Assembly (NCBI GenBank): GCA_964563155.1
Contig: CAZLVL010000001.1
Span: forward strand, 88,008 to 120,007
DNA: 32,000 nucleotides
Direction: 5' to 3'
Source of the DNA: an uncultured Clostridiaceae bacterium
Lineage (GTDB): Bacteria; Bacillota; Clostridia; DUPQ01
Under the pieces are notes generated by a model, which made no database searches, was not told the origin of the DNA, and worked only from the letters and a program-made list of their open reading frames with translations. The position numbers and the translations under genes are program-made. Positions 3,991 to 32,000 of this stretch are shown piece after piece; positions within the stretch are counted from its first letter, which is position 1, and the number at the start of each line of letters is the position of its first letter.

Positions 3991-4662
3991 TTAATATCTT
4001 TTAATGGGAATAGGATCTCCCAAATACTTTGGAGGCCTTTTTAGGAAATCTCCATCTATAACAGCCTTTATTCTGGCTAGACTTTCTCTAAAGTGGTTAT
4101 AAGGCATATTATATATTTTCTTGTTTTCTGAGGCATAGCCATAGGCTTTTATTCCCATTTTTTTTGCTAGAAAAAGTGATCTATGCATATGAAACTTTTG
4201 AGTACTTATTACAATATTATCTACCTTAAAAATATATTCACTTCTATAAATGGAATCATAGGTGCTAAAGCCTGCATAATCACAATAAATATCTTCTAAG
4301 GGGATATTTTTACTTATTAAATAGTCCTTCATTACCTTGGTTTCATTATACTCCACTGTTTTGTTATCTCCAGAAACCAAGATTGCAATCTGTCCATCAT
4401 AATAGTTATAAATCTCAATGGCATAATCTAATCGGTCTCTAAGAACAGGAGTAGGAAGTCCACCTGGATAGATTCCTGCTCCTAATACTAAAACAGCCTG
4501 AGGCTTTTCTATATTTTTTAAGTCGTCAATATCTTTTAGAAGATAACTAGAAGTTGGTAGAATTACATATAGCTGTATTGCTACAAAGCTTATGATTCCT
4601 ATTAAAATTATGTAAAGAATACTTTTTATGCCCTTGTTTTTCTTTTTCCTTCTAGAAACCAT
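3991..4662 (-). CDS. sanA: SanA/YdcF (DUF218) envelope protein
   Basis: 223 aa with an N-terminal TM helix. The core motifs line up with E. coli SanA as I recall it: LVSGDN..YNE, DYAGFSTYDSIYR, STQKFHMHRSLFLAKKMGI, LGDPIPI. Confidence 0.85.
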   Translation of the reverse strand: MVSRRKKKNKGIKSILYIILIGIISFVAIQLYVILPTSSYLLKDIDDLKNIEKPQAVLVLGAGIYPGGLPTPVLRDRLDYAIEIYNYYDGQIAILVSGDNKTVEYNETKVMKDYLISKNIPLEDIYCDYAGFSTYDSIYRSEYIFKVDNIVISTQKFHMHRSLFLAKKMGIKAYGYASENKKIYNMPYNHFRESLARIKAVIDGDFLKRPPKYLGDPIPIKRY

Positions 4663-5521: not shown

Positions 5522-5635
5522 GACATCACCTTATCCTTTGTGTCTTCCAGTTTAAATCAAATAAGAGGCATTTTCAATAAACAAGAGATTTTTTGTGGTA
5601 ATATATATTCATATACCAACAATTGGGGGTTACTA

Positions 5636-6745
5636 ATGAAGGATATTAGAAATGAGAAGCTTGCTGACATTTTGGTTAATTACTCTTGTCAGATTAAAGA
5701 AGGAGAAAAAATCCTTATATCAGCCTATGAAACTGATAATGAACTGGTAAAAAGGATTATTGACAAGGTATATGAAGCAAAGGGACTTCCCTTTGTGCAA
5801 ATCAATGATGACTCAGCAAATGCAAGATTGTTTAAAGGAATTACACAAGAACAATTAGAAATAATTAATTCCATTGACCTAGCAATGATGGAAAAAATGG
5901 ATGCCTACATTGCCATTAGAACCAGAAATAATGTTTATGAGTCTTCAATTATTCCACCTGCAACCCTTACTATGGCCTCTAAGATACTAAAGCCCTCTTT
6001 TGACCAAAGAGTAAAACATACTAAGTGGTGTGTCTTAAGATATCCCAACCAATCTATGGCTCAACTGGCAAAAATGAACACAGAGGACTTTACAGATTTC
6101 TATTATGATGTTTGTACTTTAGATTATGAAAAGATGAGCAAGGCTATGGACAGTCTAGTGGATTTAATGGATAAAACCGACCAAGTCCATATAAAAGGGC
6201 CTGGTACAGATCTAAGATTTTCCATTAAAGATATTCCCGCTATAAAGTGTGCAGGAGAAATGAACATACCAGATGGAGAAGTATTCACTGCCCCAGTTAG
6301 AGACAGTATTAATGGGCATATAACCTTTAATACTCTTTCAGCCAGCAGTGGAAAAACCTTTGAAAATATTTACTTTGAGTTTAAAGATGGAAAGATTATT
6401 AATGCAAAGTCTAACCATACAGAACTATTAAACAAAATTTTAGATACAGATGAAGGCTCAAGATATGTGGGTGAGTTTGCTATTGGAGTAAACCCTTATA
6501 TTATTCATCCTATGATGGATACCTTGTTTGATGAAAAAATTCAAGGCTCCTTCCATTTAACTCCTGGCTCTTGTTATGATGAAGCCTACAATGGTAATGA
6601 TTCAGCTATTCATTGGGATTTAGTTTCTATTCAAACCCAAGAATATGGTGGGGGAGAAATCTGGTTTGACAATCAATTGGTTAGAAAAGATGGCCTTTTT
6701 GTAATTGATTCCTTAAAGGGCTTAAACCCAGAGAATTTAAAGTGA
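5636..6745 (+). CDS. M29-family aminopeptidase (AmpS/PepS/aminopeptidase T-like)
   Basis: The track ORF opens at GTG 5540, but ATG 5636 has a GGGGG SD 6 nt upstream and gives the typical N-terminus MKDIRNEKLADILVNYS. Family motifs are present: IPDGEVFTAP, GEFAIGVNP, DEKIQGSFHLTPG. Confidence 0.85.
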   Translation: MKDIRNEKLADILVNYSCQIKEGEKILISAYETDNELVKRIIDKVYEAKGLPFVQINDDSANARLFKGITQEQLEIINSIDLAMMEKMDAYIAIRTRNNVYESSIIPPATLTMASKILKPSFDQRVKHTKWCVLRYPNQSMAQLAKMNTEDFTDFYYDVCTLDYEKMSKAMDSLVDLMDKTDQVHIKGPGTDLRFSIKDIPAIKCAGEMNIPDGEVFTAPVRDSINGHITFNTLSASSGKTFENIYFEFKDGKIINAKSNHTELLNKILDTDEGSRYVGEFAIGVNPYIIHPMMDTLFDEKIQGSFHLTPGSCYDEAYNGNDSAIHWDLVSIQTQEYGGGEIWFDNQLVRKDGLFVIDSLKGLNPENLK

Positions 6746-6753
6746 GGTAGTCT

Positions 6754-8955
6754 TTGAAAGTATTACATTTAGCAGGTGGAGGAGATATTGGAGGGGCAAA
6801 AACCCATATTCTTTCTTTGGTTAAAGAAATATCCAAGGTCAATCAAGTAAAGCTTGTTTCTTTTAGATATGGAGACTTTGCAGAATCTGCTAAAAATATT
6901 GGTATCGATGTTTTTGAAACATCCAGTAAACTCATATTCAAGGATGTTAAAGAGTTATTTAAGGTCTACGACGAGTTTAAGCCAGACATTGTTCACTGCC
7001 ATGGAGCAAAGGCAAACTTCATGGGCCTTATGTTGAAAAAGTATAAAAAGGCTTGTGTAACCAGCACCATACACAGCGATTATAGAAAAGACTATATACA
7101 CAATATCTTCAAGCTGGTTTCCATTGGAATATTTAACACCTTTGCTCTTAGAATAATTAACTACCACATAGCTGTAACAGAAGAATTTGCAAGAACCTTA
7201 ATATCTAGGGGCTTTAATCCCCATAATATGTTTTCCATATATAACTGTATTGATTTTGATAAAAAACTAGATATAATCCCAAAGGAAGACTACTTCAAAC
7301 AATACCATATCCCCTATAATCCAGAGGAAGTTATTATAGGTATTGCTGCTAGACTGACCAAGGTAAAAGATATTTCTACTCTTATTAAGGGTTTTGCCAA
7401 GTCCTATGAAGAGAATAAAAACATTAGACTTTTAATTGCTGGAGATGGCGAAGAGAAAAATATGTTATCCTCTTTAGCTAAAAAATTAGGGGTTAGCGAT
7501 AGGGTCCATTTTTTAGGTTGGATTAGCAATATTGATGCCTTTTTTTCTGTCATAGATATAGATGTTATTTCTTCTTTAAGCGAAACCTTCCCCTATTCAT
7601 TAACTGAGGGAATTAGAGCTGGTGCCATACCCATTTCCAGCTTGGTTGGAGGAGCCCCTTCTCTTATTGACCATAAGGTTACTGGATATATTTTTGAGCC
7701 AAGAGACTACAAGGCTTTGGGAAAATATATTTCTGAGCTGGCATCAGACAAGGAAAAAAGAGAGACTATGCAAAAGGAGATCTACAAAAGGACCAAGAAG
7801 AATTTTTCTCTAGATGCTATGAGAAATCTCCAACTGTCAATTTATGATCTCATCTTAAAGCGCTTTAGGTCTGACAAGAGAAATATGGTTGTAATATGTG
7901 GAGCATATGGAAGAGGAAATGCAGGAGATGAGGCTATTAAGCATGCTACCCTAAGCGGTATTAGAAGCATAGACTCTGATATGGAGCTATGTGTTATGAC
8001 CTTAAGGCCAAGAAAAGAAAGAGCTATTGATAGAGTAAACACCATATTTACCTTTAATATTTTTAAGCTTTATTTTATTCTCAAGAGAACAAAACTATTT
8101 GTAAGTGGTGGAGGTTCTTTAATACAGGATATAACCTCAACCCGTTCCCTTCTTTTTTATATCTACACCCTTTATATGGCTAAAAAAGCTAATTGTAAGG
8201 TTATAATGTTTGGTTGTGGGATAGGTCCTTTAACTAGACCAATAAACAGAAAACTAGCAGGTAGAGTTATTGATAACTATGTGGATGTTATAACGGTTAG
8301 AGACCATCTTTCAAAAAAAGAACTGGATTCTTTAGGAGTAATAAAACCTAAAATCTTTGTAACAGCAGACCCTGCTATCAACCTAGTAGCAAAGCTAGAG
8401 GATAGGCATAAAATATTTATTGAAGAAAATATTCCTATGGAAGGAAAATATATTTGTCTTGCTCTAAGAAATTGGAAAAAATTTAATAGGCATAAAGAAA
8501 TTGCAGATGCTTGTAAAAAGCTTTATGAAAAATATGATTTAATACCTATCTTTTTTCCCATGGAATATCCTAAGGATTTAAGTGCATCACAAAAGGTCAT
8601 AGACCTTTTGGACATTCCCTACTTTGTCATTGAAAATCGCTATCCCATAGAACAGGCCATTGGCTTCATATCACAAATGGATATGGTACTAGCCATGAGA
8701 CTTCATGCCTTAATCTTTGCTGCAGCTAACTATGTTCCTGTTATTGGTGTTTCATATGATGTAAAGGTTTCTGGCTTTATGGAATATATAGAAAATGAGT
8801 CCTGCATTGAGTTAGACAATGTGGAAGTTCAAACAATTGTAGATGCTGCAACCAAAAGTTTTGAGTTGAAAAACAAGGTTATTGAGGCTACAAACATTTT
8901 GAAAGAAAAAGAAGAGATAAATAAAATACAAATGAAAAAACTTATTGAACCATAA
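6754..8955 (+). CDS. csaB: Fusion protein: GT4 glycosyltransferase (N-terminal) plus CsaB polysaccharide pyruvyl transferase (C-terminal)
   Basis: 733 aa from TTG with a GAGG SD. The N-terminal half has the GT4 signature (MKVLHLAGGGDIGGAKTH..., SETFPYSLTEG E-x7-E). From residue ~378 (nt ~7885) come CsaB hallmarks: VVICGAYGRGNAGDEAI, SGGGSLIQDITSTRSLLFY, MRLHALIFA. No stop separates the halves. Confidence 0.85.
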   Translation: MKVLHLAGGGDIGGAKTHILSLVKEISKVNQVKLVSFRYGDFAESAKNIGIDVFETSSKLIFKDVKELFKVYDEFKPDIVHCHGAKANFMGLMLKKYKKACVTSTIHSDYRKDYIHNIFKLVSIGIFNTFALRIINYHIAVTEEFARTLISRGFNPHNMFSIYNCIDFDKKLDIIPKEDYFKQYHIPYNPEEVIIGIAARLTKVKDISTLIKGFAKSYEENKNIRLLIAGDGEEKNMLSSLAKKLGVSDRVHFLGWISNIDAFFSVIDIDVISSLSETFPYSLTEGIRAGAIPISSLVGGAPSLIDHKVTGYIFEPRDYKALGKYISELASDKEKRETMQKEIYKRTKKNFSLDAMRNLQLSIYDLILKRFRSDKRNMVVICGAYGRGNAGDEAIKHATLSGIRSIDSDMELCVMTLRPRKERAIDRVNTIFTFNIFKLYFILKRTKLFVSGGGSLIQDITSTRSLLFYIYTLYMAKKANCKVIMFGCGIGPLTRPINRKLAGRVIDNYVDVITVRDHLSKKELDSLGVIKPKIFVTADPAINLVAKLEDRHKIFIEENIPMEGKYICLALRNWKKFNRHKEIADACKKLYEKYDLIPIFFPMEYPKDLSASQKVIDLLDIPYFVIENRYPIEQAIGFISQMDMVLAMRLHALIFAAANYVPVIGVSYDVKVSGFMEYIENESCIELDNVEVQTIVDAATKSFELKNKVIEATNILKEKEEINKIQMKKLIEP

Positions 8956-12002: not shown

Positions 12003-12004
12003 AT

Positions 12005-12130
12005 CTTGGACATATCCGAATATTTACATAGTGGGGGACCCGAGTTTTTTAGGGGTGAATCTTACAAAAAAAAAGAGGCGAAGCTTGGTATCGCTAACCC
12101 GTCAGCTAATCCCATAGGAGTACACCAAGG
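12005..12130 (+). promoter_or_regulatory. c-di-AMP riboswitch (ydaO/yuaA class)
   Basis: Conserved blocks are readable: GUGGGGGACCC, GGGGUGAAUC, AACCCGUCAGCUAAUCC. The closing helix is CUUGG (12005-12009) with CCAAG (12125-12129). This matches the B. subtilis ydaO leader as I recall it (GCGGGGGACCCA...GGGGUGAAUCC...AACCCGUCAGCUAACC). Confidence 0.85.
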
Positions 12131-12219
12131 CAAAATATGATATTTTTATTATATTTTTTTTGCTGTTGTGTATTTTATTTATATTCAGCAGTTAAATTAC
12201 AATTGGCGGGAGGCTATAA

Positions 12220-13467
12220 ATGAATGTCTTGTTAAAAATTGCAATTGTCATGGTGGTAGGCATTATAGGGGGCAAACTGGCAAAAATGCTTAAACTACCC
12301 AATGTATCCGGTTATTTAGTAGCCGGGCTATTTTTGGGTCCTTCTTTCTTTAACTTTGTCAGTAGTCAGGATTTAAATTCTTTTTCAATAATTAATGAAA
12401 TGGCTTTAGCAGCCATTGCCTTTAGTATAGGTAATGAATTCATTTGGAAAGAGATTAAAAAGATTGGAAAGTCCATATTTGTAATAACCCTTATGGAGGT
12501 TATTGGGGCAGTGCTAGTGGTCTTTTCTATTATGTTCTTTCTTTTTAAGCAACCCTTTTCCTTTTCAATTATCATAGCTTCCATGTCAGCAGCTACAGCA
12601 CCTGCTGCCACTTTATTAGTTATGAGACAATATAATGCAAAAGGCCCCTTGACCAGTGCCATACTTCCAGTAGTAGCTCTAGATGATGTTTTTGGCATAG
12701 CAATTTTTGGAATTGCCCTTTCTTTAGCTAGAATGACTGATAGTACGGAATCTTTTTCTATTCCTGCTATGATTTTTCAACCTCTGTTAGAAATTGGTGG
12801 ATCTGTTTTATTAGGTTTTGTTTTAGGAATAATATTAGTCTTTGTTACCGGAAAGATATTAAAAAGCAAGGACGAGATACAAGCAGTATCTTTAGCAGCT
12901 GTAGGCTTAAGCGCCGGCTTGTCCATTTTGCTCCACATCTCTCCTCTTCTTACTAGTATTGTTATGGGAACAGTATTAGTAAACTTTAAGCAAAAACCTG
13001 GCAAGATTTTCGAGTCTGTAAACACCTTTGCCACACCCTTGTACTTACTCTTTTTTACCCTAGCGGGAGCAAGTTTAGACCTTTCTATACTAAAGACTGT
13101 TGGTCTTATGGGTATAGCCTATGTCATAGCTAGAGGTGGTGGAAAGATGCTTGGTGCTTGGGCTGGAGCTGAAATGGTTAATGAAGTTCCAGTTATTAAG
13201 AAATATTTAGGCTTAGCCCTTTTACCCCAAGGAGGAATATCCATTGGTTTATTGGTATTGGTAAGACAATACTTGCCTGCCCACAGCGCTGCCATAAATG
13301 CCATTATTATGTTCAGCGTACTGATATATGAAGTGAGTGGACCTATTTTTGCAAAAATTGCTATAAGCAAAGCTGGAGAAATAAATATACCAGAAAAGCA
13401 AAAAAAAGATTTTCCATTTTTTAAAAGCAAAAAGGAAAAAACTATTTCACAATCAGTGAAAAAATAA
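12220..13467 (+). CDS. Cation:proton antiporter (CPA2/Na_H_Exchanger family), membrane domain only
   Basis: 415 aa with about 12 hydrophobic helices and a typical N-terminus (IAIVMVVGIIGGKLAKMLKLPNVSGYLVAGLFLGPS). No soluble RCK/KTN domain is attached. Confidence 0.85.
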   Translation: MNVLLKIAIVMVVGIIGGKLAKMLKLPNVSGYLVAGLFLGPSFFNFVSSQDLNSFSIINEMALAAIAFSIGNEFIWKEIKKIGKSIFVITLMEVIGAVLVVFSIMFFLFKQPFSFSIIIASMSAATAPAATLLVMRQYNAKGPLTSAILPVVALDDVFGIAIFGIALSLARMTDSTESFSIPAMIFQPLLEIGGSVLLGFVLGIILVFVTGKILKSKDEIQAVSLAAVGLSAGLSILLHISPLLTSIVMGTVLVNFKQKPGKIFESVNTFATPLYLLFFTLAGASLDLSILKTVGLMGIAYVIARGGGKMLGAWAGAEMVNEVPVIKKYLGLALLPQGGISIGLLVLVRQYLPAHSAAINAIIMFSVLIYEVSGPIFAKIAISKAGEINIPEKQKKDFPFFKSKKEKTISQSVKK

Positions 13468-17902: not shown

Positions 17903-18175
17903 ACCAAAGAAAAACCGCTGATTAAGAAGAGTAGGCGAAGAGATTTATTGTACAGGGAGTTGCAGATACTGAGATTGCAGCAAAGAAGGCTTCACTGAAT
18001 GGACTTATGAGGGCAGGACGAAAGGAAACGAGTAGCGCCTGACGGGATCTCCACCCGTTATAAAGGGAGCATATATGAGTGTATATGGAATGAGTGGGCA
18101 TTTTTGCCAATCAGGGTGGTACCGCAGGAGTATAATCTCTTGTCCCTAGTTTTAGGGATGAGGGATTTTTTTTAT
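17903..18175 (+). promoter_or_regulatory. T-box leader, tryptophan specifier (UGG)
   Basis: Stem I has AGUA, an AG bulge (AGGGAG), a distal UGAGA, and the specifier loop GAA-UGG-A (UGG at 18000-18002). The T-box sequence AAUCAGGGUGGUACCGCAGG is at 18109-18128. The terminator CTCTTGTCCCTA-gttt-TAGGGATGAGGG plus a T run is at 18137-18174. Confidence 0.85.
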
Positions 18176-20990: not shown

Positions 20991-22973
20991 TTACTCAAAC
21001 TGACTTTCATGCTTTTCAAAAAAGTCTTCTCTAGGGTTTAAGAAAATGGTTGGGCTATTTTTGTCTATTAACATGTCTTCAACTGTTAAAAAGGCATTAT
21101 CCCAACTCCATATTTCAGGTTTAAAACCAATATATTTTCTTACCAACTCACAGCCCTTTGGAGCTACAGGGTGAAGTAGAAGAAGAGCTGTCTTTATTCC
21201 ATAAAAGCAATCAATTAGGATTTGTTTTCTCAACTCTTCATTGTTTTCTTTTTCGACAATCCTAATATTATTAGACCAATGCTTATTTAACATTCTCACA
21301 TAACTATCTAAAACATAGGCGATTCTGTGAATATCATTGTTATACATGTGAAGCTCATACTCTAAAAGCGCTGCATGTGACTCGTCAACTATCTCAGGTG
21401 AAACCTCTCCAATTTGGACCTTAGAATCATAATTATCTTGGATTGAGTATAGACAAGACCTAACTAATCTATTAAATACATTGGTTAAAAGATTTCCCTC
21501 TTTAACAGCAGGGTCTACACCAATTTGTTCTTCTTTAGGCAAAAGAGCTAAAGGCTTAAAACTAGAACTTTTACTTGTAAGGCCTAGACTTATAAAGTGC
21601 ATTCTCAATTGTTCTGCTGTGTAACATTCCAAAAGGTCATTTGCCATAGGTGGCTTAATAGCTGAGCTACTAGAGGCCTTTTTATCCATAAACAAGATAT
21701 GCTTATTGGCAATTATTAAGGGCAAGTTTAACTTAGTCATATCAATATCTTCAAACTTATCACTTCTTAGGGCAGAGAACATGGCCATTTCTGCAATTGC
21801 ATAAAAGTATATATTATCCTCACCAATAAATTGGTAGACCTTTGAATCTTCATGGTCCCACCAATCTTTCCAGTCTTGGTCATTTTTCTTTGTTTCAATC
21901 AGGTAGCTTCTTAGAAATGATACAGGAGCCCATAAAGATTCTGGCCATACCCAGAAGGTTAAATCTTTAAGGCCTTCTTTTTCCATTACAGGTACTCCCC
22001 ATTCAATATTTCCTGATAGTCTAAAAGGAACTAGGGTCTTTCCTGTCCTATAGCGGATTTGCTTTTCATTTAAAACATCTCTTGCCTTATCTCTATCTTC
22101 TAGAGACTTAAAGACAAAGGTTACAGAAGGCTTTCTTTCTTCTTCAATTAATTCATGATTTGGAAAGAAAGATCTCAAATCCTTCATATCCTCAATTTGC
22201 TTTTTTTGCACATATATTACTGGAGGCTTTAAGAACTCTTCTATGGCATCTAAAACAAACTTTCTAGTTACAGAATTGGCTCTTAAGTTGTCCACCTGTT
22301 CTTGCATTTTGTCAGCAAACTCTTCTAGCTTAAAATACCAGTTTTCCACATTTACAATGGTGGGTTTTAGCCCAGACAAAGCACTTTTTGGATCGATTAA
22401 CTCCTCTGGCATATATTGATGTCCAGCTGCACATTCATCTGCATAGGCCTTATCTGACACACAGCCCTCAAAGGGGCATCTTCCTTCAACCTGTCTTCCA
22501 TTTAGTAGTACTTCAAACTGAGGATCAAAAAATTGAGGTGTGGACATCTTGTTCAAATAGCCCTTATCATAAAGCTGGCTAAAGACCTCATCAGAGACCT
22601 TTTTATGAACCTGCTTATCTTCAAAAAGACCAGAAGCACCAAAATGGTTAAGACTTATTTGATAATCATCTAAGGTCTTTTTTTGCTTATCGTGATTGTA
22701 CTTAACGAAATCACTTATATCAGAAAAGTCCTTATTACCCTCTTCTTGAATTTTTCTATAGCTTTCCACAATTGGAGAACCATAGCAATCGGTACCTGAT
22801 ACAAAAATTACATTATCAGCACCTATCCTGTCTCGCATAAATCTTGCAAATACATCTGCGTGTACAAACAAGCCCCCTATATGTCCAAAATGCAATTCTT
22901 TGTTACCATAGGGCATTCCTCCGGTAATAACTGCTCTTTTTGGAAATTTTGGTCTATTATCTATATTTTTCAT
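20991..22973 (-). CDS. Divergent methionyl-tRNA-synthetase-family (class I) enzyme; substrate uncertain
   Basis: 660 aa with a GGAGG SD. It has a HIGH motif (HFGH, PYGNKELHFGHIGGLFVHADVFARFMR). The connective-peptide region aligns with E. coli MetG (FFDPQ..GRCPFEGC...ECAAGH..PEELIDPKS), as does FIGEDNIYF. Anticodon-domain residues N..R (NRLVR) and KHW are retained. However, KMSKS reads KASSS (21666-21680) and pocket residues differ (see findings). Confidence 0.75.
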   Translation of the reverse strand: MKNIDNRPKFPKRAVITGGMPYGNKELHFGHIGGLFVHADVFARFMRDRIGADNVIFVSGTDCYGSPIVESYRKIQEEGNKDFSDISDFVKYNHDKQKKTLDDYQISLNHFGASGLFEDKQVHKKVSDEVFSQLYDKGYLNKMSTPQFFDPQFEVLLNGRQVEGRCPFEGCVSDKAYADECAAGHQYMPEELIDPKSALSGLKPTIVNVENWYFKLEEFADKMQEQVDNLRANSVTRKFVLDAIEEFLKPPVIYVQKKQIEDMKDLRSFFPNHELIEEERKPSVTFVFKSLEDRDKARDVLNEKQIRYRTGKTLVPFRLSGNIEWGVPVMEKEGLKDLTFWVWPESLWAPVSFLRSYLIETKKNDQDWKDWWDHEDSKVYQFIGEDNIYFYAIAEMAMFSALRSDKFEDIDMTKLNLPLIIANKHILFMDKKASSSSAIKPPMANDLLECYTAEQLRMHFISLGLTSKSSSFKPLALLPKEEQIGVDPAVKEGNLLTNVFNRLVRSCLYSIQDNYDSKVQIGEVSPEIVDESHAALLEYELHMYNNDIHRIAYVLDSYVRMLNKHWSNNIRIVEKENNEELRKQILIDCFYGIKTALLLLHPVAPKGCELVRKYIGFKPEIWSWDNAFLTVEDMLIDKNSPTIFLNPREDFFEKHESQFE

Positions 22974-22992
22974 ATTCCCTCCTTAAAGACGC

Positions 22993-23224
22993 AAAAAAGC
23001 CCCTAATCTCATATATTTAGGGGCGATTGTTTATCGCGGTGCCACCCTACTTTACATATGCGTCACCACATATGCCTTGCAAAGTAATCTTACTTTTGTT
23101 CTATAAGGGGAACAACCCATATTGGCTCCAAGGCTTGGTTCATGGGGTTTGAAATACCCTTTCTCATCTTCTGGGTTTTCTGTAAATTCAAGATCCGCAC
23201 TACTCTTCTTTTCATTGCCGTCTT
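22993..23224 (-). promoter_or_regulatory. T-box leader (minus strand) of the MetRS-like gene; specifier assignment ambiguous
   Basis: Read on the minus strand. K-turn GGC-AAU-GA ... GA-GCC, AGUA, AG bulge AGAAA, distal UGAGA, and a specifier loop containing AUGAACCAAGC. The T-box AGUAGGGUGGCACCGCG is the rc of 23035-23051. The terminator GCCCCTAA-atatatgaga-TTAGGGGC plus T6 is the rc of 22993-23024. Confidence 0.85.
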
Positions 23225-23230: not shown

Positions 23231-23260
23231 AGTATAAAATGAAAGGTAAGCTTTTGTCAA
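23231..23260 (-). promoter_or_regulatory. Sigma-A promoter of the minus-strand T-box leader
   Basis: The rc reads TTGACA (23260-23255), an 18 nt spacer, TATACT (23236-23231). It overlaps the stop codon of the upstream HAD gene. Confidence 0.55.
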
Positions 23261-24219
23261 ACTAAAGCCTGAAATATGTGGTAAATTTGCTCATCTAAAA
23301 AATCTTCAACCAAGATATTGCTACCCAGCTCTTTATGAAGCTTTTGTTGATATGTCATAGAAGATGATAGCCTACTCATGGTTATGGCATCCATTTCTAC
23401 GCCAGCGCTTATCTCGGCTCTTCCATCTCCCACCACTAAAACAGCTCTAGGGTCAATGGAGAGCTTTTTTACTAAATCATTCATTATTACATTCTTAGGT
23501 ACTTTGTCTGTCCAGGTAGAGCCAATAATGTCTTCAATGAGTTTTCCACGGCCTATGCTGTAGCCTAGGGTTTCCACCTCTTCAAACATACCCATTCCTT
23601 TTTCTACCACTGCCCCAGTGACAAAGTAGTTTTTAACCTTATTATCTTTTAGATATTGTAAAAACTTAAAAGAGCCTTCAATTCGAAAATCTTCTGGCTT
23701 TATTTTAGCTAGCTCTAAATTTTTATCCCTACAAAAACCATTAAGCACCTGTTCATAAAACTTAAAAAGCCTAGGGGTATTATTAATAAGCATTTGCTTC
23801 ATTTCTTTTGTTTCAGAAAAATCATCAAATACTTCAATTCCTTGCCATATTAGAGCTATTATTTCTTTATTGGTTTTTTCCTTATGGTTTACAATTACTG
23901 TTTTTTCTTCTACAGCCCGCCTTATGGCCCATTCCATCTGGGTTAGGGCAGATAGTCCAGCAGACTCTACACAAAATCTATCCGTCTCTTCTAAGACTTT
24001 TGTGCCAGCTGCATTTATGAGTCTAGTAATATTTTCTTTACTATCATAACCTTCATTTAAGCCATTTTCTATTACATCATGTAAAACAATAGACATGACA
24101 GGAGGCCAGTCTCTAATAAGAGAATGGGTCCCGTCAATGTCATGAAAAGCATGGGTAATCACTCGATCCTCAAAAGGATTTATTATTAATGAGGATTTTA
24201 TAAAGTTAGCTTTAATCAT
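23257..24219 (-). CDS. HAD-superfamily hydrolase/mutase-like protein with a very large cap insertion
   Basis: 320 aa. Motif I is FHDIDGTHS, motif II FVTGA, motif IV VVGDGRAE. About 170 aa lie between motifs I and II. Confidence 0.65.
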   Translation of the reverse strand: MIKANFIKSSLIINPFEDRVITHAFHDIDGTHSLIRDWPPVMSIVLHDVIENGLNEGYDSKENITRLINAAGTKVLEETDRFCVESAGLSALTQMEWAIRRAVEEKTVIVNHKEKTNKEIIALIWQGIEVFDDFSETKEMKQMLINNTPRLFKFYEQVLNGFCRDKNLELAKIKPEDFRIEGSFKFLQYLKDNKVKNYFVTGAVVEKGMGMFEEVETLGYSIGRGKLIEDIIGSTWTDKVPKNVIMNDLVKKLSIDPRAVLVVGDGRAEISAGVEMDAITMSRLSSSMTYQQKLHKELGSNILVEDFLDEQIYHIFQALV

Positions 24220-24221
24220 AT

Positions 24222-25253
24222 TTATTTTTCTTCAGTACAAAGACCAATCAAATCGTTTACATCGCAGGTTGCCATTCTAAGAATGGAGTCTCCAGCTGCA
24301 TAGTATATTCTGATTTGATTGTCATCATCCAAAAGTGCTCCGCAAGGGAACAAAGCATTTACTCTATAGCCTTCTACAGTTTCGTAATGTCCTTCAGGAA
24401 TAATTAAAGGACGTTTGCTCATTCCTATTACCTTGGAAGGATCTTGTAGGTCTAAAAGAGCAACAGCTATGGTATATCTCTTCTTCCAGGTAGGTTCCCA
24501 ACCATTTTTACCTCTTGCAGGGTCAAAGTCTACTGCATGATAAAGCATAAGCCAGCCTTTATCGGTTTTAATTGGAGGAGCTCCAGGACCAATTTTTTCA
24601 TTGGCAAAAGGAACATGCTCAACACCTAGAACTAGTCTGGATTTTCCCCAGTAAACTAAATCTGGAGACTCAGAAAGCCAGATATCAAATTTCATCCCAT
24701 CTCTACCATAAACTGGCATAGGTCTTTCTAAACGGACATAGTTTCCATTTATTTTTTCTGGAAACAGTACCATATTTCTGTTTTCAGGTACTGACATAGA
24801 GATTACATCAAATTTCTTTAAATCTTTTGTTTCTGCAATTCCACCACAAACTCCGTGCTTTGTGTCCACTGCGAAACAAATTATATAGCGGTCATCCATA
24901 ACGGTTATTCTTGGGTCATACACCCTTATAACTTCGTCATCTGCCATGGCAAAACAAGGCTCAGGTTCAACCTTCCATTTAAGTCCATCATCACTAAAAG
25001 CTAGACCTAAATTGGTTCCATCAATTCTTTGTTCATCATATGAGCCATAGTCGTTTCTAAAAATCATGATATATTTGTTGTCATGTTTTACAACACCTGC
25101 ATTAAAGGTTAAAGCAGAAGCATAAGGAACATCGTGTCTACTTAGAATGGTTTCAGGGTAACGGGTAATAATTGGACTTGTTGAAAATAAGCTTTCATCC
25201 AATGCCTCTTGTGGGCAAGCATAAAGGACTTTGCGGGTTGCTTCATCTAACAT
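24222..25253 (-). CDS. GH130-family glycoside phosphorylase (beta-mannoside phosphorylase type)
   Basis: 343 aa with GH130 motifs: FNAGVVKHDNKYIMIFR, YDPRI (catalytic Asp context), ENRNMVLFPEKINGNYVRLERP (phosphate-binding Arg/Asn) and LMLYHAV. Confidence 0.8.
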   Translation of the reverse strand: MLDEATRKVLYACPQEALDESLFSTSPIITRYPETILSRHDVPYASALTFNAGVVKHDNKYIMIFRNDYGSYDEQRIDGTNLGLAFSDDGLKWKVEPEPCFAMADDEVIRVYDPRITVMDDRYIICFAVDTKHGVCGGIAETKDLKKFDVISMSVPENRNMVLFPEKINGNYVRLERPMPVYGRDGMKFDIWLSESPDLVYWGKSRLVLGVEHVPFANEKIGPGAPPIKTDKGWLMLYHAVDFDPARGKNGWEPTWKKRYTIAVALLDLQDPSKVIGMSKRPLIIPEGHYETVEGYRVNALFPCGALLDDDNQIRIYYAAGDSILRMATCDVNDLIGLCTEEK

Positions 25254-26457: not shown

Positions 26458-26802
26458 ATGTTTGTTGGTCTTTTGAATAATTCAAAGATAATTACAAACG
26501 GCATGGATAAGTGTTTTTTGCGTAACCAAATACTTTCAACCAACCTTGCCAACACTGAAACCCCTGAGTTTAAAGCCAAGGACTTGTTTATCAATGTCTT
26601 AAATCCGCTTACAAGTAAGGGGGAAATTAACTACTTAATTGAGGAAAGAAGTGATGTATCACCTAAAGAAAATGGTAATACAGTAGATATGGCCAAGGAA
26701 ATGACCTCTTTGGTTGAAAATGTTCTTGAGTACAATGCTCTAGTTCAGGCCATGTCAAAAAACATTAGCCACATTGAGTACGCATTAGGAGACAGGAGGT
26801 AA
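26458..26802 (+). CDS. flgB: Flagellar basal-body rod protein FlgB
   Basis: 114 aa with an AAGGAGG SD and the rod-protein motif LSTNLANTETPEFKAKD. First gene of the flgB-flgC-fliE order. Confidence 0.85.
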   Translation: MFVGLLNNSKIITNGMDKCFLRNQILSTNLANTETPEFKAKDLFINVLNPLTSKGEINYLIEERSDVSPKENGNTVDMAKEMTSLVENVLEYNALVQAMSKNISHIEYALGDRR

Positions 26803-26804
26803 AA

Positions 26805-27233
26805 ATGTCTAGTATTGCAGCTTTTGGAATCAGTTCACAAGCCTTATCGGTTTATCAAATGAAATTAAACATAATTTCACAAAATATTGCTAATGCAGAT
26901 ACCATTCAAACCGATACCCAAGAACCCTATCAAAGAAGAGTGGCAGACCTTGTTCAAAAGCCTCTTTTTAGTGCAGTTTTTGAGGATGTTAAAAACAATA
27001 AAGAGGTCATAAGTGTGGATATTGAAAGTATCAAACAAGATACCACCCCCTTTCAAAGGGTTTATGACCCTGGTAATCAGTACGCTGACCAAGAAGGTTA
27101 TATAACAAAATCCAACGTAGATACTACCAAAGAAATGTTGGACTTATTGGCAGTAAGTAGGGCCTATGAAGCTAATCTAATGGCCTTTAACATTACAAAA
27201 GATATGGTCAATAGATCAATTGACATATTATAA
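26805..27233 (+). CDS. flgC: Flagellar basal-body rod protein FlgC
   Basis: 142 aa with ISQNIANADT at the N-terminus and SNVDTTKEMLDLLAVSRAYEAN at the C-terminus. Confidence 0.9.
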   Translation: MSSIAAFGISSQALSVYQMKLNIISQNIANADTIQTDTQEPYQRRVADLVQKPLFSAVFEDVKNNKEVISVDIESIKQDTTPFQRVYDPGNQYADQEGYITKSNVDTTKEMLDLLAVSRAYEANLMAFNITKDMVNRSIDIL

Positions 27234-27244
27234 GGAGATTAATC

Positions 27245-27565
27245 ATGGCTATACAAAATATTAATGCAATACAAAGCCTGCAAAATATTCAAAATGTATC
27301 TAAGTTGGCAGGCGATGCTAGTATTAATGCAAAAAATGGAGACAAACTCCAATTTGGCAGTATCTTTGATGACTTGTTAAAAAATGTAGCCCAAGCTGAA
27401 ATTAAAAATCAAGAGAATCTTAATTTGCTAGTAACCGGTGATGTGCTGGAGATAACAAAGGCCTTAGTTGGCATGGCAGAGGCAGACCTAACTATAAAGT
27501 TTGCTATGGAAGTTAGAAATAAGGTTGTTGATGCATATAAAGAAATTATGCAAATGCAAGTATAA
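27245..27565 (+). CDS. fliE: Flagellar hook-basal body complex protein FliE
   Basis: 106 aa with the characteristic C-terminal A.VGMAEADLTIKFAMEVRNKVVDAYKEIMQMQ, in the position after flgC. Confidence 0.85.
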   Translation: MAIQNINAIQSLQNIQNVSKLAGDASINAKNGDKLQFGSIFDDLLKNVAQAEIKNQENLNLLVTGDVLEITKALVGMAEADLTIKFAMEVRNKVVDAYKEIMQMQV

Positions 27566-27577
27566 AGGGGAATCTTA

Positions 27578-29083
27578 ATGGCTGATGCATTAAAATCAAA
27601 CTTATCAAAAATCAAGGAATATTGGGATAGTTTAGAGAGTAAACGAAAAAATAGCTTAGTATTAATTGGTCTCATCTTTTTAATAGGACTGGTCTTTTTA
27701 GTAGTTCTTGTTACAAGACCTACCTACACAACCCTCTACACAAATTTGGATGTATATGAAGCTGGAGAAATTTACTCAAAATTAACCGAAATGGGAGCAG
27801 ATATAAAGCTTAAAAATGATACTACCCTTCTAATAAATGAAAAACAAGCTGATTCATACCGAATGCTTATGGCAAAAGAAGGTTATCCCAAAAGTGGTTT
27901 TAATTATGACCTTTATACTGACAACATTGGTATGGGAGTATCAGAAAATGAAAAGCAAACCTTCTATATCTTCCAAGTCCAAGAAAGGTTACAAAACACA
28001 ATTAAAACCCTAAAGGGAGTAAAAAATGCCATTGTAACCATAAGTAAACCTGAAGAGACCATTTTTGTTTTAGCCAGCCAGCAAAAACCAATAACAGCAG
28101 CCATAGTAATAGACCTTGAAACATCCAGCCTTTCAGCAGCTAATGTAAAAGCAATAGAGCATTTAGTAGAAAAAAGCATGTCTGGCCTTTTAAAGGAAAA
28201 CATTACCATCATAGATTCACAGATGAACATTCTAAACAGACGGACCGATACAAATATTGGAGTAGCTTCTGAAAAATATGAATTACAAAGAGGTCTTGAA
28301 ATGGAGATAGAAGAAAAAATCCTTTCCATGATAGAACCAATTTATGGCATTGGCAATGTAAAAACCGCTGCTAATGTTAAGGTTAATTTTGATTCCATAA
28401 GCGAAGAAAGGGTTGAGTTTAATCCTGTTAATGATGACCAAGGTATCCCCTACTCTGTAACCGAAAGAAGTGAATCCATTAAAGAGGCTAGTCCAGCTAC
28501 TTTGGATGAAAACAATAACCTCTTTTTAGAAAATGATGCTGCTTCACAAGAAAGGTCTGTTTTGTATTATGTTAATCAAAGTACCAAGGTTTTAGCTTAT
28601 GAACAAGGGATTGTTGAAGACATTAAGTTATCAATAATAATAAACAGTGTGGCAATTGCAGATGAAGTACTAGAAAACATCAGAGTAATGGCAGCAAATG
28701 CCATAGGTTCAAAAGAAAGCAATGTTGTGGTTCAAGCTCTTGAGTTTACAGAAAAAATGAATATGGAAAGCAACCTAAAAGATGCTGAGAAAACCCAACC
28801 TAAAATGTCTTTAATATACGATAAGGACTTTGTTCTAAAAGTCGCTACCCTCTTTTCAGTTTTTCTCTTAGGTCTTTTAGCAATTTTAGTCTTTAGAAAA
28901 AGTATCCTTACCTTAAAACCAAAATTTGAGAAAAAACCTGAAATTATTGATACAGCCTTCTTAGAAGAGCTAGGTTCCAAAAAAGATCCTGAAGAACAAT
29001 ATAGGGATGAGATTGATAAATATGTGGAAAAGAACCCACAAGGAGTAGCTGACATACTAAAGAAATGGATGCATGAGGAGTAA
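27578..29083 (+). CDS. fliF: Flagellar M-ring protein FliF
   Basis: 501 aa. An N-terminal TM helix is followed by YTTLYTNLD..EAGEIYSKLTEMG, then a second TM helix near the C-terminus. Operon position fits. Confidence 0.9.
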   Translation: MADALKSNLSKIKEYWDSLESKRKNSLVLIGLIFLIGLVFLVVLVTRPTYTTLYTNLDVYEAGEIYSKLTEMGADIKLKNDTTLLINEKQADSYRMLMAKEGYPKSGFNYDLYTDNIGMGVSENEKQTFYIFQVQERLQNTIKTLKGVKNAIVTISKPEETIFVLASQQKPITAAIVIDLETSSLSAANVKAIEHLVEKSMSGLLKENITIIDSQMNILNRRTDTNIGVASEKYELQRGLEMEIEEKILSMIEPIYGIGNVKTAANVKVNFDSISEERVEFNPVNDDQGIPYSVTERSESIKEASPATLDENNNLFLENDAASQERSVLYYVNQSTKVLAYEQGIVEDIKLSIIINSVAIADEVLENIRVMAANAIGSKESNVVVQALEFTEKMNMESNLKDAEKTQPKMSLIYDKDFVLKVATLFSVFLLGLLAILVFRKSILTLKPKFEKKPEIIDTAFLEELGSKKDPEEQYRDEIDKYVEKNPQGVADILKKWMHEE

Positions 29084-29085
29084 CC

Positions 29086-30108
29086 ATGGAAAACCTTAAG
29101 ATGTCAAATTTAAATATTTCTGGAAAACAAAAGGCTGCATACCTTCTAATAATGTTAGGAAAAAGCCAGGCTTCAAAGCTTATGAGATTTTTTAATGAAG
29201 AAGAAATCAAAACAATAACCTTTGAAATAGTAAATCACAACACCATTGATAAACCAGATAGAATGGTCATTTTGCAAGACTTCTATAACAGCTGCCTAGC
29301 TAAAACCTATATTGACAAAGGGGGCATAGATTATGCCAAAGAAATCCTTTATGAAACCATGGGACCTCAAAAAGCATTAGAGCTCATAAATGACATGATG
29401 GATTTAGAAAAATCAAAACCCTTTGATTTTATGAAAGATATTGATCCTATAGAAGTTTTTAACTATCTACAATTTGAAAATGATCAAACCATAGCCTTTA
29501 TACTTTCATATTTAAAAAACAATCAAGCAGCTGCTGTTTTATCCATGTTACCCAGAGAAAGACAAGCCAATGTCTCAGTTAAAATTGCCTTAATGGATAA
29601 AATTTCCCCAGACATTATTAAAGAAATTGAAAGTGTTATGGGAGAAAAATTTACCAGACCTGGTGCTCAAGCCTATACAAAAACTGAAGGTATTGAAATC
29701 TTAGTAAATATTCTCAACTCGGTTGATAGAAGTACAGAAAAACAAATCTTTGAAATGCTAGAAGAGGAAAATGACAATTTAGCTGGAGAAGTCAAAAAGA
29801 GAATGTTTGTATTTGAAGATATCATCAACCTGGGTGATAAGGAAATTCAAAGATTCTTAGTGGAAGTAGATACAAAGGATTTAGCAATTTCCTTAAAAAC
29901 AGCTACTGAAGAACTAAAAGATTTAATACTAAAGAATCTTTCCAAGAGAGCTCGTCAAATTGTTGTAGAAGAAATGAATCTTTTGGGTCCTGTTAGATTA
30001 AGTGAGATTGAAAAATCTCAACAAGAACTGGTTAGTGTTATAAGGGCATTAGATGAAAAGGGAGACATTCTAATCAGAAAAACCGGCGATGACAAGATCA
30101 TAGATTAA
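29086..30108 (+). CDS. fliG: Flagellar motor switch protein FliG
   Basis: 340 aa with GKQKAAYLLIMLG, MFVFEDI and LSKRARQIVVEEM. Confidence 0.9.
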   Translation: MENLKMSNLNISGKQKAAYLLIMLGKSQASKLMRFFNEEEIKTITFEIVNHNTIDKPDRMVILQDFYNSCLAKTYIDKGGIDYAKEILYETMGPQKALELINDMMDLEKSKPFDFMKDIDPIEVFNYLQFENDQTIAFILSYLKNNQAAAVLSMLPRERQANVSVKIALMDKISPDIIKEIESVMGEKFTRPGAQAYTKTEGIEILVNILNSVDRSTEKQIFEMLEEENDNLAGEVKKRMFVFEDIINLGDKEIQRFLVEVDTKDLAISLKTATEELKDLILKNLSKRARQIVVEEMNLLGPVRLSEIEKSQQELVSVIRALDEKGDILIRKTGDDKIID

Positions 30109-30181
30109 ATAAATAGAAAGAAAGAAGAAGCATTAAAAGCAAGAAAAAAAGGCCGATGAATTAATTATAGGGGGAAAAAAA

Positions 30182-30907
30182 GTGAGTGAATTATTAAAAG
30201 GTGATAGTGTAGTAATGGCAAGCAATAAGTACCATATATGTTTTACAGAAACTTGTAGTCAACCTATTAGTCTAAAAAACTATGAAGAAAGTAGCATAAA
30301 CAAGGAACAAAAAGAATCTGTTTTAATGTTCAAGCAAAATACAATTCATGAAGCAGAGGTTACTGCAACTAAAATCTTGTGTGAAGCAAAAGAAAAAGCC
30401 GACAACATAATTCAAGAGGCAATAAAAGAAAAAGAGGAAAAATACAAGAGAGGCTATGAAGAGGGCTTAAAAAAAGCTGAACAAGAAACAAAAGAAGCTC
30501 TTGAAAGGATAAATGAAAGTTTTTTAGATCTCTTAAAGACTAAAAAAGAAATAATTGAAAACTCAGCCCAAGAGGTTCTTAATTTAGCTCTATGTATAAG
30601 TCAAAGAATATTAAATGAAAAAATTACACTTTGTCCAGACAGTGTAAGATTATGCTTTGAAAGAGCTATAGATGATATTGTCAGTAAGGGCTATGAAATT
30701 GTTTGTATTCGTCTTAATAAAACTAATATTGATAAGTTTTATCCCAGTTGGGAAATAGAAGATTACATGATCAAAATTAAGCATGACCCCAGACTTTCTG
30801 ATACTTCTTGTATAGTGGAAACTGACACAGGTGACATTGATATAGGGATGATGACTCAATATGAGGAAATATCCTGCAAGCTACTTTCTTTTTCTAAGCA
30901 TGAATAG
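30182..30907 (+). CDS. fliH: Flagellar assembly protein FliH
   Basis: 241 aa from GTG with an AGGGGG SD 7 nt upstream. It has a Glu/Lys-rich coiled region and lies between fliG and fliI. The start codon is uncertain (alternative ATG at 30215). Confidence 0.7.
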   Translation: MSELLKGDSVVMASNKYHICFTETCSQPISLKNYEESSINKEQKESVLMFKQNTIHEAEVTATKILCEAKEKADNIIQEAIKEKEEKYKRGYEEGLKKAEQETKEALERINESFLDLLKTKKEIIENSAQEVLNLALCISQRILNEKITLCPDSVRLCFERAIDDIVSKGYEIVCIRLNKTNIDKFYPSWEIEDYMIKIKHDPRLSDTSCIVETDTGDIDIGMMTQYEEISCKLLSFSKHE

Positions 30908-32000
30908 AATTAAATTAGACAAGTTTATAGATATTGCACAAGAAGCCTCCTATTACAGAACCTACGGTGAAGTAAAAAAAATCGTAGGCGATAGCATTGA
31001 AAGCAATGGCCCACGGGCTCAAATAGGAGAGATTTGTAAAATCGTAAAAAAGCATTCTTCTGACACTGATGATTTTGTCTTAGCTGAGGTTGTTGGCTTT
31101 ATAGACAAGAAGCTTTTACTCATGCCCTTTGGTGATATAAAGGGTATAAACAATGGGGATAAAATATTTGCTACAGGTCAACAGTTGCAAATAAAGATAA
31201 GTGATGACCTCATAGGAAAGGTCTTAGATGGTCTAGGAAATCCAGTAAGAAAAGAGCAAATAAAGGATTTTGAAATGAGAAATGCATATGCTGACTCTCC
31301 AGATCCTTTTTCTAGAAAAAGAATAACCCAAGCCCTACCCTTAGGAATAAAGGCCATTGACTCTCTTTTAACCTGCGGTAAAGGACAAAGACTAGGAATA
31401 TTTTCTGGTACTGGAGTGGGAAAAAGTACACTTTTAGGAATGATAGCCAGAAACTCTTCTGCTGATATTAATGTTATAGCCCTAGTAGGAGAAAGAGGTA
31501 GAGAGGTTAATGACTTCATAGAAAAGGACTTAGGACCTGAAGGCCTTAAAAAATCTATTTTAGTGGTAGCCACTTCCGACCAGCCAGCAATAGTTAGAAT
31601 AAAAAGTGCTATGGTAGCAACAGCAATTGCAGAGTATTTTAGGGACAAAAACAAGAATGTCCTTCTTATGATGGATTCTTTGACAAGATTTGCTATGGCT
31701 CAAAGGGAGGTTGGCCTTGCAGCGGGAGAGCCACCTGTAGCTAGGGGCTATACCCCTTCTGTATTATCTGTCCTTCCTAAACTTTTAGAAAGAACAGGCT
31801 ATAATGACAAATCTTGTATTACAGCTATCTATACAGTTTTGGTAGAAGGAGATGAAATGAATGAACCCATATCAGATACTGTAAGAGGAATCTTAGATGG
31901 CCACATTGTCTTATCCAGGACCATTGCCTCTAGAAATCATTTTCCTGCTATTGATGTCTTAGCCAGTATTAGTAGGGTTATGCCAGATGTTGTGGAAAAA
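30900..32000 (+). CDS. fliI: Flagellum-specific ATPase FliI (N-terminal 367 codons; continues past the right window edge)
   Basis: Not in the ORF track (no stop in the window). ATG 30900 overlaps the end of fliH. It reads MNRIKLDKFIDIAQEASYYRTYGEVKKIVG, with Walker A FSGTGVGKST near 31400 and LLMMDSLTRFAMAQREV. Confidence 0.9.
   Translation, partial: MNRIKLDKFIDIAQEASYYRTYGEVKKIVGDSIESNGPRAQIGEICKIVKKHSSDTDDFVLAEVVGFIDKKLLLMPFGDIKGINNGDKIFATGQQLQIKISDDLIGKVLDGLGNPVRKEQIKDFEMRNAYADSPDPFSRKRITQALPLGIKAIDSLLTCGKGQRLGIFSGTGVGKSTLLGMIARNSSADINVIALVGERGREVNDFIEKDLGPEGLKKSILVVATSDQPAIVRIKSAMVATAIAEYFRDKNKNVLLMMDSLTRFAMAQREVGLAAGEPPVARGYTPSVLSVLPKLLERTGYNDKSCITAIYTVLVEGDEMNEPISDTVRGILDGHIVLSRTIASRNHFPAIDVLASISRVMPDVVEK

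Follow-up and report, generated by a model that had tools for sequence, protein, structure and literature searches.

This report concerns a gene of the methionyl-tRNA synthetase (MetRS) fold, and the RNA leader that precedes it, on a 32,000-nucleotide stretch of DNA from an uncultured Clostridiaceae bacterium (contig CAZLVL010000001.1, positions 88,008 to 120,007). We refer to the whole of this stretch as the window, and coordinates are positions within it unless another locus is named. The gene is an open reading frame (ORF) on the minus strand, 20991..22973, which we confirmed and which encodes a protein of 660 amino acids. An initial annotation, made from the DNA sequence, had offered two readings of this protein: a highly divergent housekeeping MetRS, or a paralog with altered specificity. 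We are confident in the joint claim that the protein is not a housekeeping MetRS and that regulation of its gene is tied to tRNAGln. On balance, we lean slightly toward the further reading that it is a synthetase for tRNAGln derived from MetRS, and most probably a second glutaminyl-tRNA synthetase (GlnRS) that is structurally unrelated to the canonical enzyme.

The gene and the elements upstream of it are listed here in the order of transcription.

23231..23260, minus strand: sigma-70-type promoter, TTGACA and TATACT separated by 18 nucleotides, 11 of 12 consensus matches, located just upstream of where the T-box leader starts
23016..23224, minus strand: T-box leader with Stem I, Stem III and the antiterminator/T-box sequence, Stem II being absent here (RF00230, 91.8 bits)
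23135..23137, minus strand: specifier codon CAA (Gln), after the S-turn GAA (23139-23141) and the spacer C (23138), and followed by the conserved purine G (23134)
23041..23044, minus strand: T-box bulge UGGC, the pairing partner of the tRNA 3' end (G73-C-C-A); from the leader sequence and the RF00230 match
22993..23024, minus strand: intrinsic terminator, a GCCCCUAA / UUAGGGGC hairpin followed by U6; from the sequence, with the helix present in the minimum free energy (MFE) and centroid folds
22977..22984, minus strand: ribosome-binding site AAGGAGGG, upstream of the ATG at 22971-22973; read from the sequence
20991..22973, minus strand: coding sequence of the MetRS-fold class I synthetase paralog (clade A, described below); ORF, domain, profile and structure-model evidence

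A T-box leader precedes the gene

The leader matches the Rfam T-box model RF00230 over its full length (model positions 1-219) with 91.8 bits and E 2.5e-20, compared with a gathering score of 93. Five orthologous leaders pass the gathering score, at 99.9 to 119.8 bits. Stem I, the specifier loop, the T-box sequence and the terminator/antiterminator of this RNA class are all present, and the terminator is an 8-bp GC-rich hairpin followed by U6. The z-scores from MFE folding of Stem I and of the terminator were not significant, and leader structure was judged by the covariance model and by covariation in place of these scores. The initial annotation had placed the gene under T-box control and had supposed that this control couples it to tRNA charging. 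The match, the terminator and the orthologous leaders bear out the first point, and the second is right with tRNAGln as the predicted tRNA, which that annotation had not identified because it left the specifier unread; the specifier is CAA and not AUG.

The leaders of the window and of two orthologous loci (L001 and L002) lack the Stem II, or IIA-B, region (GCAUACGGAU...GUGAUGCUAUGACG) that most orthologous leaders possess. They represent a shortened T-box architecture, like that of glyQS, inside one orthologous set.

Specifier and discriminator

We conducted a Stem I profile search over 81 loci, that is, the window and 80 orthologous loci, and found Stem I 115 to 530 nucleotides upstream of the gene in 32 of them. 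The specifier is CAA in 29 of the 32 leaders and CAG in three (L001 and L002, whose leaders are identical, and L039), and AUG occurs in none. All 32 leaders follow the specifier loop pattern GAA-N-CAR-G-N, with AAA instead of GAA in L073; the loop of the window reads GAA-C-CAA-G. In an RNAalifold analysis of 29 Stem I sequences, the helix below the specifier loop is unbroken in every case (GC 17, AU 6, GU 6), and the helix above it exhibits many compensatory changes. Covariation in both flanking helices therefore fixes the boundaries of the specifier loop.

The variation between CAA and CAG is synonymous only in the glutamine (CAR) frame. Three other readings were rejected. In the +1 frame, AAG and AGG (Lys and Arg) make the variants non-synonymous, the next base is variable, mostly C, and the bulge UGGC mismatches A73. 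The -1 frame gives NCA (ACA, GCA or CCA, for Thr, Ala or Pro), so that the amino acids are inconsistent. Finally, an AUG overlaps the S-turn of the window (CCCC-AUG-AA), with its AU paired in the upper helix, and orthologs have ACG, AAG or UUG there. As controls on the frame, the same structural rule yields CUC for a T-box of 113.7 bits that precedes a bona fide leucyl-tRNA synthetase (LeuRS) gene in locus L005, and UGG for another T-box of the window (17909-18150), which precedes a gene for a TrpX-like binding protein.

In the orthologous leaders, the last base of the UGGN bulge is C 13 times and U 12 times, and never A or G. Bacterial tRNAGln carries G73, and tRNAMet and tRNALys carry A73 (identity table, PMC9976931). 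Because both UGGC and UGGU occur, only G73 fits both, by Watson-Crick or wobble pairing. No tRNAGln gene that would allow a direct check of G73 was found in the window and 60 loci. Among the 226 Gln T-boxes in TBDB, 215 have CAA and 11 have CAG, which is the same bias toward CAA as in the orthologous leaders. The leader thus combines a glutamine codon as specifier with a UGGN bulge that matches the discriminator of tRNAGln. Taken together, the CAA/CAG specifier, the frame controls, the G73-compatible bulge and the usage in TBDB lead us to the sequence-based prediction that the leader at 23016-23224 is a sensor of tRNAGln.

Fold and relationship to MetRS

The protein matches the Pfam family PF09334 (tRNA-synt_1g, the MetRS catalytic family) in two stretches with a passing score of 209 bits. 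This superfamily-level model is the only one passed, and all curated MetRS equivalog models are failed, including NF001100 (217.8 bits versus a cut-off of 587) and TIGR00398 (174 bits versus 336). In a profile search of PDB, for which the query profile was built from 17 family members, the closest solved structure was the MetRS of P. abyssi (1RQG, E 5.5e-59), aligned in two pieces (residues 15-254 and 322-626). An AlphaFold2 model of the protein has a predicted local distance difference test score (pLDDT) of 82.5 and a predicted template modeling score (pTM) of 0.86, and comparison of this model with 1RQG by Foldseek gives template modeling (TM) scores of 0.71/0.77. The domain match, the profile search and the structural comparison uphold the MetRS fold of the initial annotation; the MetRS domain architecture, the class I Rossmann fold and the HIGH motif are all present.

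The protein has no match to PF00749, the catalytic domain of canonical GlnRS and glutamyl-tRNA synthetase (GluRS), and the same tools recognized true GlnRS and GluRS neighbors. The match to PyrN, a MetRS-like protein of hydrazine synthetases, is weak compared with that to true MetRS (E 3e-8 versus 5e-59 in the profile search), and the 660-amino-acid protein has no extra N-terminal domain.

Distribution and sister clade

We count at least 589 species genomes with a family member (of 599 pattern matches, at least 589 proved to be relatives). The 80 orthologous loci that we retained come from species-representative genomes, almost all of them Clostridia and mainly Lachnospiraceae and Clostridium. 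The top family matches are 55-75% identical to one another, which implies strong purifying selection. PGAP names these proteins "class I tRNA ligase family protein", and some sources annotate them as methionine--tRNA ligase. No description of the MetRS-like family, or of a Gln T-box before a MetRS-like gene, was found in the full-text literature, most subscription journals being outside the scope of that search.

A HMMER search over 1.84 billion representatives, followed by a neighbor-joining tree, resolved three groups: canonical MetRS; clade A, the family of the 660-amino-acid protein, whose members range down to 37% identity; and clade B, its sister. Proteins of clade B are 26-29% identical and come from non-Firmicute contigs, one of which is named Pseudomonadota. 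They share with clade A the insertion described below and the pocket motifs WPESL-AP and DN-YFY, and they retain KMSKS, ITRD and CxxC...CxxC, with PHDDR replacing PW. In two distant clade B loci, the gene adjoins an MFS gene and a gene for an Aat-like Leu/Phe-tRNA-protein transferase (PF03588). Clade B may represent a dedicated aminoacyl-tRNA supply for the Aat-like transferase. The clade B members are P0154, P0165, P0175 and P0197 (loci L090, 8001-10912; L091, 8001-10599; and L084).

Amino-acid pocket and catalytic loops

The features of the protein that are discussed in this and the following section are, in order from its N terminus:

22881..22901, minus strand: HIGH loop N24-K25-E-L-H28-F-G-H31 with the clade-specific Lys25; family alignment and motif table
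22419..22478, minus strand: remodeled zinc knuckle C166-x4-C171 ... C181-x3-H185; invariant in 17 family members
22035..22223, minus strand: inserted ferredoxin-like domain, residues ~251-313, between the CP domain and the second Rossmann half; alignments and AlphaFold2
21924..21947, minus strand: pocket motif W343-P-E-S-L-W-A-P350 (W-F/L-D-A-P-I-G-Y in MetRS), with Y260 changed to P and A256 to S; alignments and motif table
21801..21818, minus strand: pocket motif D386-N-I-Y-F-Y391 (D-I/N-x-x-F-H in MetRS), with H301 changed to Y; alignments and motif table
21666..21680, minus strand: KASSS, the KMSKS-equivalent loop, residues 432-436; alignments and motif table
21099..21521, minus strand: helical anticodon-binding domain, with the N501/R505 helix conserved and the Trp of the MetRS "PW" replaced (V573)

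Residues were mapped by profile alignment to 1RQG and E. coli MetRS, by a 19-sequence alignment with canonical MetRS and by a motif table. The residues of E. coli MetRS correspond to the following positions in the protein:

L13: M20, replaced
Y15: Y22, kept
D52: D62, kept (binder of the alpha-amino group)
W253: W343, kept
A256: S346, replaced
P257: L347, replaced
Y260: P350, replaced
I297: N387, Asn also in P. abyssi and aligned canonical MetRS
H301: Y391, replaced
W305: E395, replaced

From structural work, we take L13, Y260, H301 and W305 to be the residues that form the methionine pocket of E. coli MetRS. All four differ here, being M20, P350, Y391 and E395. The changes of L13 to M, Y260 to P and H301 to Y are invariant across the family, and canonical relatives carry L, Y and H at these positions. 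The same three positions are the classical targets of mutation for re-engineering the specificity of MetRS, and the corresponding mutant structures 3H97 and 3H9B were among the structure matches in the profile and Foldseek searches. N387 is not special, since P. abyssi and aligned canonical MetRS also have Asn there. The segments VWPESLWAP (residues 342-350) and YFYAIAEMAMF (residues 389-399) were correctly placed in the initial annotation, and its proposal that the methionine pocket is replaced stands for Y260, H301 and W305, while Trp253, as W343, is retained.

The substituted pocket positions are uncharged and partly polar (S346 and Y391), and they include no Arg. In PyrN, which activates glutamate, the H301 position is Arg425, which binds the gamma-carboxylate of glutamate, and a second Arg also contacts this carboxylate (bioRxiv 10.1101/2025.08.22.671884).

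The HIGH motif reads HFGH (residues 28-31), and the ITRD of MetRS reads LSGN. The KMSKS-equivalent loop is KASSS at residues 432-436, as had been annotated. The lack of a second Lys is real and is not unique to this protein, because true MetRS have KFSTS (P. abyssi) and KISTS or KFNTS (other canonical relatives); KASSS alone is therefore not aberrant. Three residues before HIGH, Lys25 is invariant in clade A, and the corresponding residue is Gly or Ser in clade B and canonical MetRS, which keep a KMSKS-type loop. In arginyl-tRNA synthetases that lack KMSK, a "HIGH-loop lysine" compensates, and by analogy Lys25 might make up for the absent KMSKS lysine.

Zinc knuckle, inserted domain and anticodon domain

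C166, C171, C181 and H185 align with CxxC...CxxC of canonical MetRS. The initial annotation had regarded this knuckle as only partly retained. None of the four varies within the family, a pattern suggestive of a CCCH zinc site and not of a decayed knuckle.

The inserted domain adds approximately 60 residues (~251-313) to canonical MetRS by alignment, in agreement with an earlier estimate of about 55, and the alignment of the family profile with 1RQG is interrupted from residue 254 to residue 322. In the AlphaFold2 model, the domain has a beta-alpha-beta-beta-alpha-beta fold. A Foldseek search with the inserted domain alone gave no significant match, the best being generic ferredoxin-like (ACT/RRM/PII-like) at E of at least 5e-3. 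The domain could aid the binding of the acceptor arm of tRNAGln.

The helical anticodon-binding domain is modeled with pLDDT of at least 88 through most of its length. MetRS reads CAU via an Asn/Arg/Trp triad (PMC12757634), which in E. coli is N391, R395 and W461. The first two are present as N501 and R505, and the Trp position is V573, with Ala in most family members, so that the triad as a whole is incomplete. The anticodon-helix residues N..R and KHW had been recognized in the initial annotation; the former hold as N501 and R505, and the Trp of the latter, W566, aligns instead with the Phe of "NRYF", W461 being replaced by V573. Across the family, HIGH, Asp62, the N501/R505 helix and a large part of the anticodon domain do not vary.

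Genomic neighborhoods

Neighboring genes were analyzed by all-versus-all clustering of 770 ORFs from the 80 loci. No neighborhood is conserved, and no neighbor family occurs in more than nine loci, so that context is uninformative apart from occasional aminoacyl-tRNA synthetase (aaRS) neighbors. Many Lachnospiraceae copies have no T-box and reside in housekeeping operons. The settings of T-box-less copies include positions after rpsF-ssb-rpsR, after parB, and downstream of genes for isoleucyl-tRNA synthetase (IleRS) or LeuRS. A canonical MetRS gene was not found in the flanks of the 80 loci, nor were a lysine N-hydroxylase or conserved biosynthetic neighbors.

In two Clostridium genomes, a canonical GlnRS gene is convergent (tail to tail) with the clade A gene, at a distance of ~400 nucleotides in L092 (GCA_000309845.1; 10001-14056) and ~1.8 kb in L026 (MAG_CA253; 2025-7477). 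The GlnRS of L026 matches TIGR00440 at 736 bits. The clade A gene keeps its CAA T-box in both genomes, and no T-box upstream of this canonical GlnRS gene reached the gathering score. In C. celatum (L094), the same GlnRS gene is tail to tail with a gene for a GluRS of 553 amino acids instead.

The GluRS gene gltX lies directly upstream of the MetRS-like gene in two divergent lineages, with a 16-nucleotide gap in L080 (4309-7998) and a 4-nucleotide overlap in L088 (3-3298) and L089 (1-2330). In L080 and L088/L089, the two genes appear to form an operon.

Proposed function and alternatives

We propose that the gene encodes a putatively active class I aaRS paralog that descends from a MetRS of the archaeal/E. 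coli type and that would no longer serve methionine and tRNAMet. Its leader would be a transcription-attenuating T-box, in which the CAA specifier and the UGGC bulge select tRNAGln. When uncharged tRNAGln accumulates, transcription would read through into the gene, and the product would aminoacylate tRNAGln, probably directly with glutamine. The role may be that of a constitutive enzyme, as for the T-box-less Lachnospiraceae copies, or of a T-box-induced second enzyme beside canonical GlnRS, as in some Clostridium. Where a canonical GlnRS is present, the enzyme could serve as a backup that is induced when charging of tRNAGln drops through starvation or inhibition of the main enzyme.

Retention of the HIGH loop, the alpha-amino-binding Asp, the probable zinc site and the conserved anticodon domain speaks for a synthetase that is active and binds tRNA. 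T-boxes govern synthetase genes as well as genes for the biosynthesis and transport of the cognate amino acid, so a tRNAGln synthetase is the simplest interpretation. We consider it fairly probable that the protein aminoacylates tRNAGln. For the more specific claim that the amino acid charged is glutamine, the chances are perhaps a little short of even. Glutamine is favored over glutamate because the pocket residues are uncharged (S346 and Y391), while PyrN has Arg at the H301 position. More tentatively, these proteins may constitute a previously unrecognized type of GlnRS that arose from MetRS and not from GluRS, is widespread in Clostridia including gut Lachnospiraceae, and belongs to a wider superfamily with the Aat-linked clade B.

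A very divergent but genuine MetRS, whether the housekeeping enzyme or a second, for example inhibitor-resistant, copy of the MetRS2 type, would explain why MetRS is the best match at every level, why some sources annotate members as methionine--tRNA ligase, and why N501 and R505 of the anticodon helix are retained; moreover, KxSxS loops without the second Lys exist in true MetRS. However, no leader has AUG as its specifier and all 32 have CAA or CAG, UGGC would mismatch A73 of tRNAMet, Y260, H301 and W305 have been exchanged, the anticodon Trp is missing, and the scores are far under the equivalog cut-offs. We regard such an enzyme as very improbable. In particular, the combination of a tRNAGln sensor with loss of the sulfur-contacting Tyr and His and of the CAU-stacking Trp makes a housekeeping MetRS very unlikely, and of the two readings in the initial annotation, it is the paralog with altered specificity that the Gln specifier, the UGGC/UGGU bulge and the replaced methionine-specificity positions support. 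The same leader evidence would apply to a tRNAGln-specific enzyme resembling GluRS2, which would make Glu-tRNAGln for subsequent amidation by GatCAB, with the T-box sensing only whether tRNAGln is aminoacylated. The gltX gene appears to be co-transcribed in L080 and L088, and PyrN (PDB 9L8V) shows that glutamyl-adenylate can be bound by a MetRS-like fold. This possibility is nevertheless quite unlikely in our view, given that the protein has neither Arg nor Lys at the positions with which PyrN binds the gamma-carboxylate, and the H301 position is Tyr, not Arg.

We also consider a non-translational role unlikely, in which the protein, as an adenylating enzyme or synthetase, would either place another amino acid on tRNAGln or act as a tRNA-independent ligase in the manner of the MetRS-like domains of hydrazine synthetases, with the Gln T-box as merely a glutamine or nitrogen sensor. 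MetRS-like domains have been recruited in secondary metabolism to activate Gly, Glu, Ser, Ala, Tyr and Thr, and the sister clade lies beside an Aat-like aminoacyl-tRNA-protein transferase gene in two loci. By contrast, the protein studied here has no cupin domain, its 80 loci lack a lysine N-hydroxylase and conserved biosynthetic neighbors, and its anticodon-binding domain is complete and highly conserved. Many copies reside in housekeeping contexts (rpsF-ssb-rpsR, parB and aaRS genes), and the profile search places true MetRS much closer than PyrN.

Several observations count against our main proposal, a synthetase for tRNAGln. The window's own T-box falls 1.2 bits under the Rfam gathering score. 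Canonical GlnRS coexists in at least two genomes, so the MetRS-like gene need not be the sole source of Gln-tRNAGln there, and since IleRS and LeuRS genes are neighbors as well, proximity to an aaRS gene does not point to Glx in particular. Clade B, which has the same pocket, lacks the T-box and lies by an Aat-like gene, hints at a different or non-translational use of the pocket. Sequence and profile alignment are the basis of the pocket assignments.

Comparison with known systems

The protein resembles MetRS of the archaeal/E. coli type (1RQG; 1QQT/1F4L) in the order of its domains: a Rossmann fold with HIGH, the CP domain with the zinc knuckle, the KMSKS-loop domain and the helical anticodon domain. 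It also keeps Asp52, Trp253 and the Asn/Arg anticodon helix. It differs from MetRS in the replacement of Y260, H301, W305 and the CAU-stacking Trp, in the ~60-residue inserted domain, in KASSS, the extra HIGH-loop Lys and LSGN for ITRD, in its predicted tRNAGln-sensing leader, and in its sub-threshold equivalog scores. With canonical GlnRS (GlxRS, PF00749), the protein shares the predicted tRNA, and adjoining genes in two Clostridium genomes, but no sequence or domain kinship beyond the class I Rossmann fold. The canonical enzyme recognizes the anticodon through beta-barrel domains; the present protein carries the helical bundle of MetRS instead.

Normally, one synthetase lineage serves each amino acid. 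Known exceptions, such as the class I and class II lysyl-tRNA synthetases (LysRS) and the indirect pathways for Gln, Asn and Cys, have shaped ideas on the genetic code's evolution, in which glutamine is seen as a late addition with a synthetase derived from GluRS. Paralogs of aaRS with switched specificity are a known kind. H. pylori GluRS2 is likewise an additional synthetase devoted to tRNAGln, derived from another class I enzyme by duplication or transfer. It is a GluRS homolog that needs GatCAB, whereas the protein described here is a MetRS homolog with an uncharged pocket. The MetRS-like domains of hydrazine synthetases (PyrN and Spb40/Tri28; PDB 9L8V) illustrate how the MetRS scaffold can be retuned to another amino acid. 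In these domains, the H301 equivalent helps to determine specificity, and the KMSKS loop, which reads KFSTG, has no second Lys. They are, however, fused to or paired with cupins, accompanied by a lysine N-hydroxylase, tRNA-independent and encoded in secondary-metabolite clusters, and none of this applies to the 660-amino-acid protein. In B. cereus, lysK is reported to encode a class I LysRS under T-box control beside a housekeeping class II LysRS (PMC2916919). The lysK gene and the present gene have in common a structurally different second synthetase for one tRNA family, controlled by a T-box, with the standard enzyme also in the genome; the difference is that LysRS1 belongs to a biochemically proven family, while the activity proposed here is a prediction.

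If our proposal is correct, the family would constitute a third, independent route to Gln-tRNAGln beside canonical GlnRS and GluRS with GatCAB. Confirmation of GlnRS activity would establish a new synthetase lineage for glutamine, and hence an independent invention of glutamine decoding. It would further mean that nature can rewrite both the amino-acid and the anticodon specificity of a class I scaffold. The annotations "methionine--tRNA ligase" and "class I tRNA ligase family protein" would be corrected in hundreds of Clostridia genomes, predictions of sensitivity to aaRS inhibitors in gut Firmicutes would be affected, and the protein would offer a possible new scaffold for an orthogonal aaRS/tRNA pair.

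Other features of the window

Upstream of the leader, a gene resembling GH130 glycoside phosphorylases and a gene for a HAD-like hydrolase of 320 amino acids occupy 23257-25253 (minus strand). Together they make up a transcription unit of their own, which stops just short of the T-box promoter. The hydrolase has no NCBIfam match.

The second T-box of the window (17909-18150, plus strand) scores 99.5 bits; its specifier is UGG (Trp) and its bulge is UGGU. It precedes a three-gene ABC transporter operon that extends to 20919 on the plus strand and encodes the TrpX-like binding protein, a permease and an ATPase. The binding protein scores 276 bits with NF041285, under the cut-off of 390. This operon is convergent with the MetRS-like gene.

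A cyclic di-AMP riboswitch of the ydaO type (12004-12135, plus strand; 66 bits) is located upstream of a gene (12220-13467) for a cation transporter of the Na+/H+-exchanger family (PF00999). The start of a flagellar operon (26458-31000, plus strand) encodes a rod protein, FliE, FliF, FliG, FliH, FliI and FliJ, as identified by Pfam on the identical contig L081, and the organism is therefore presumably a motile bacterium of the class Clostridia.

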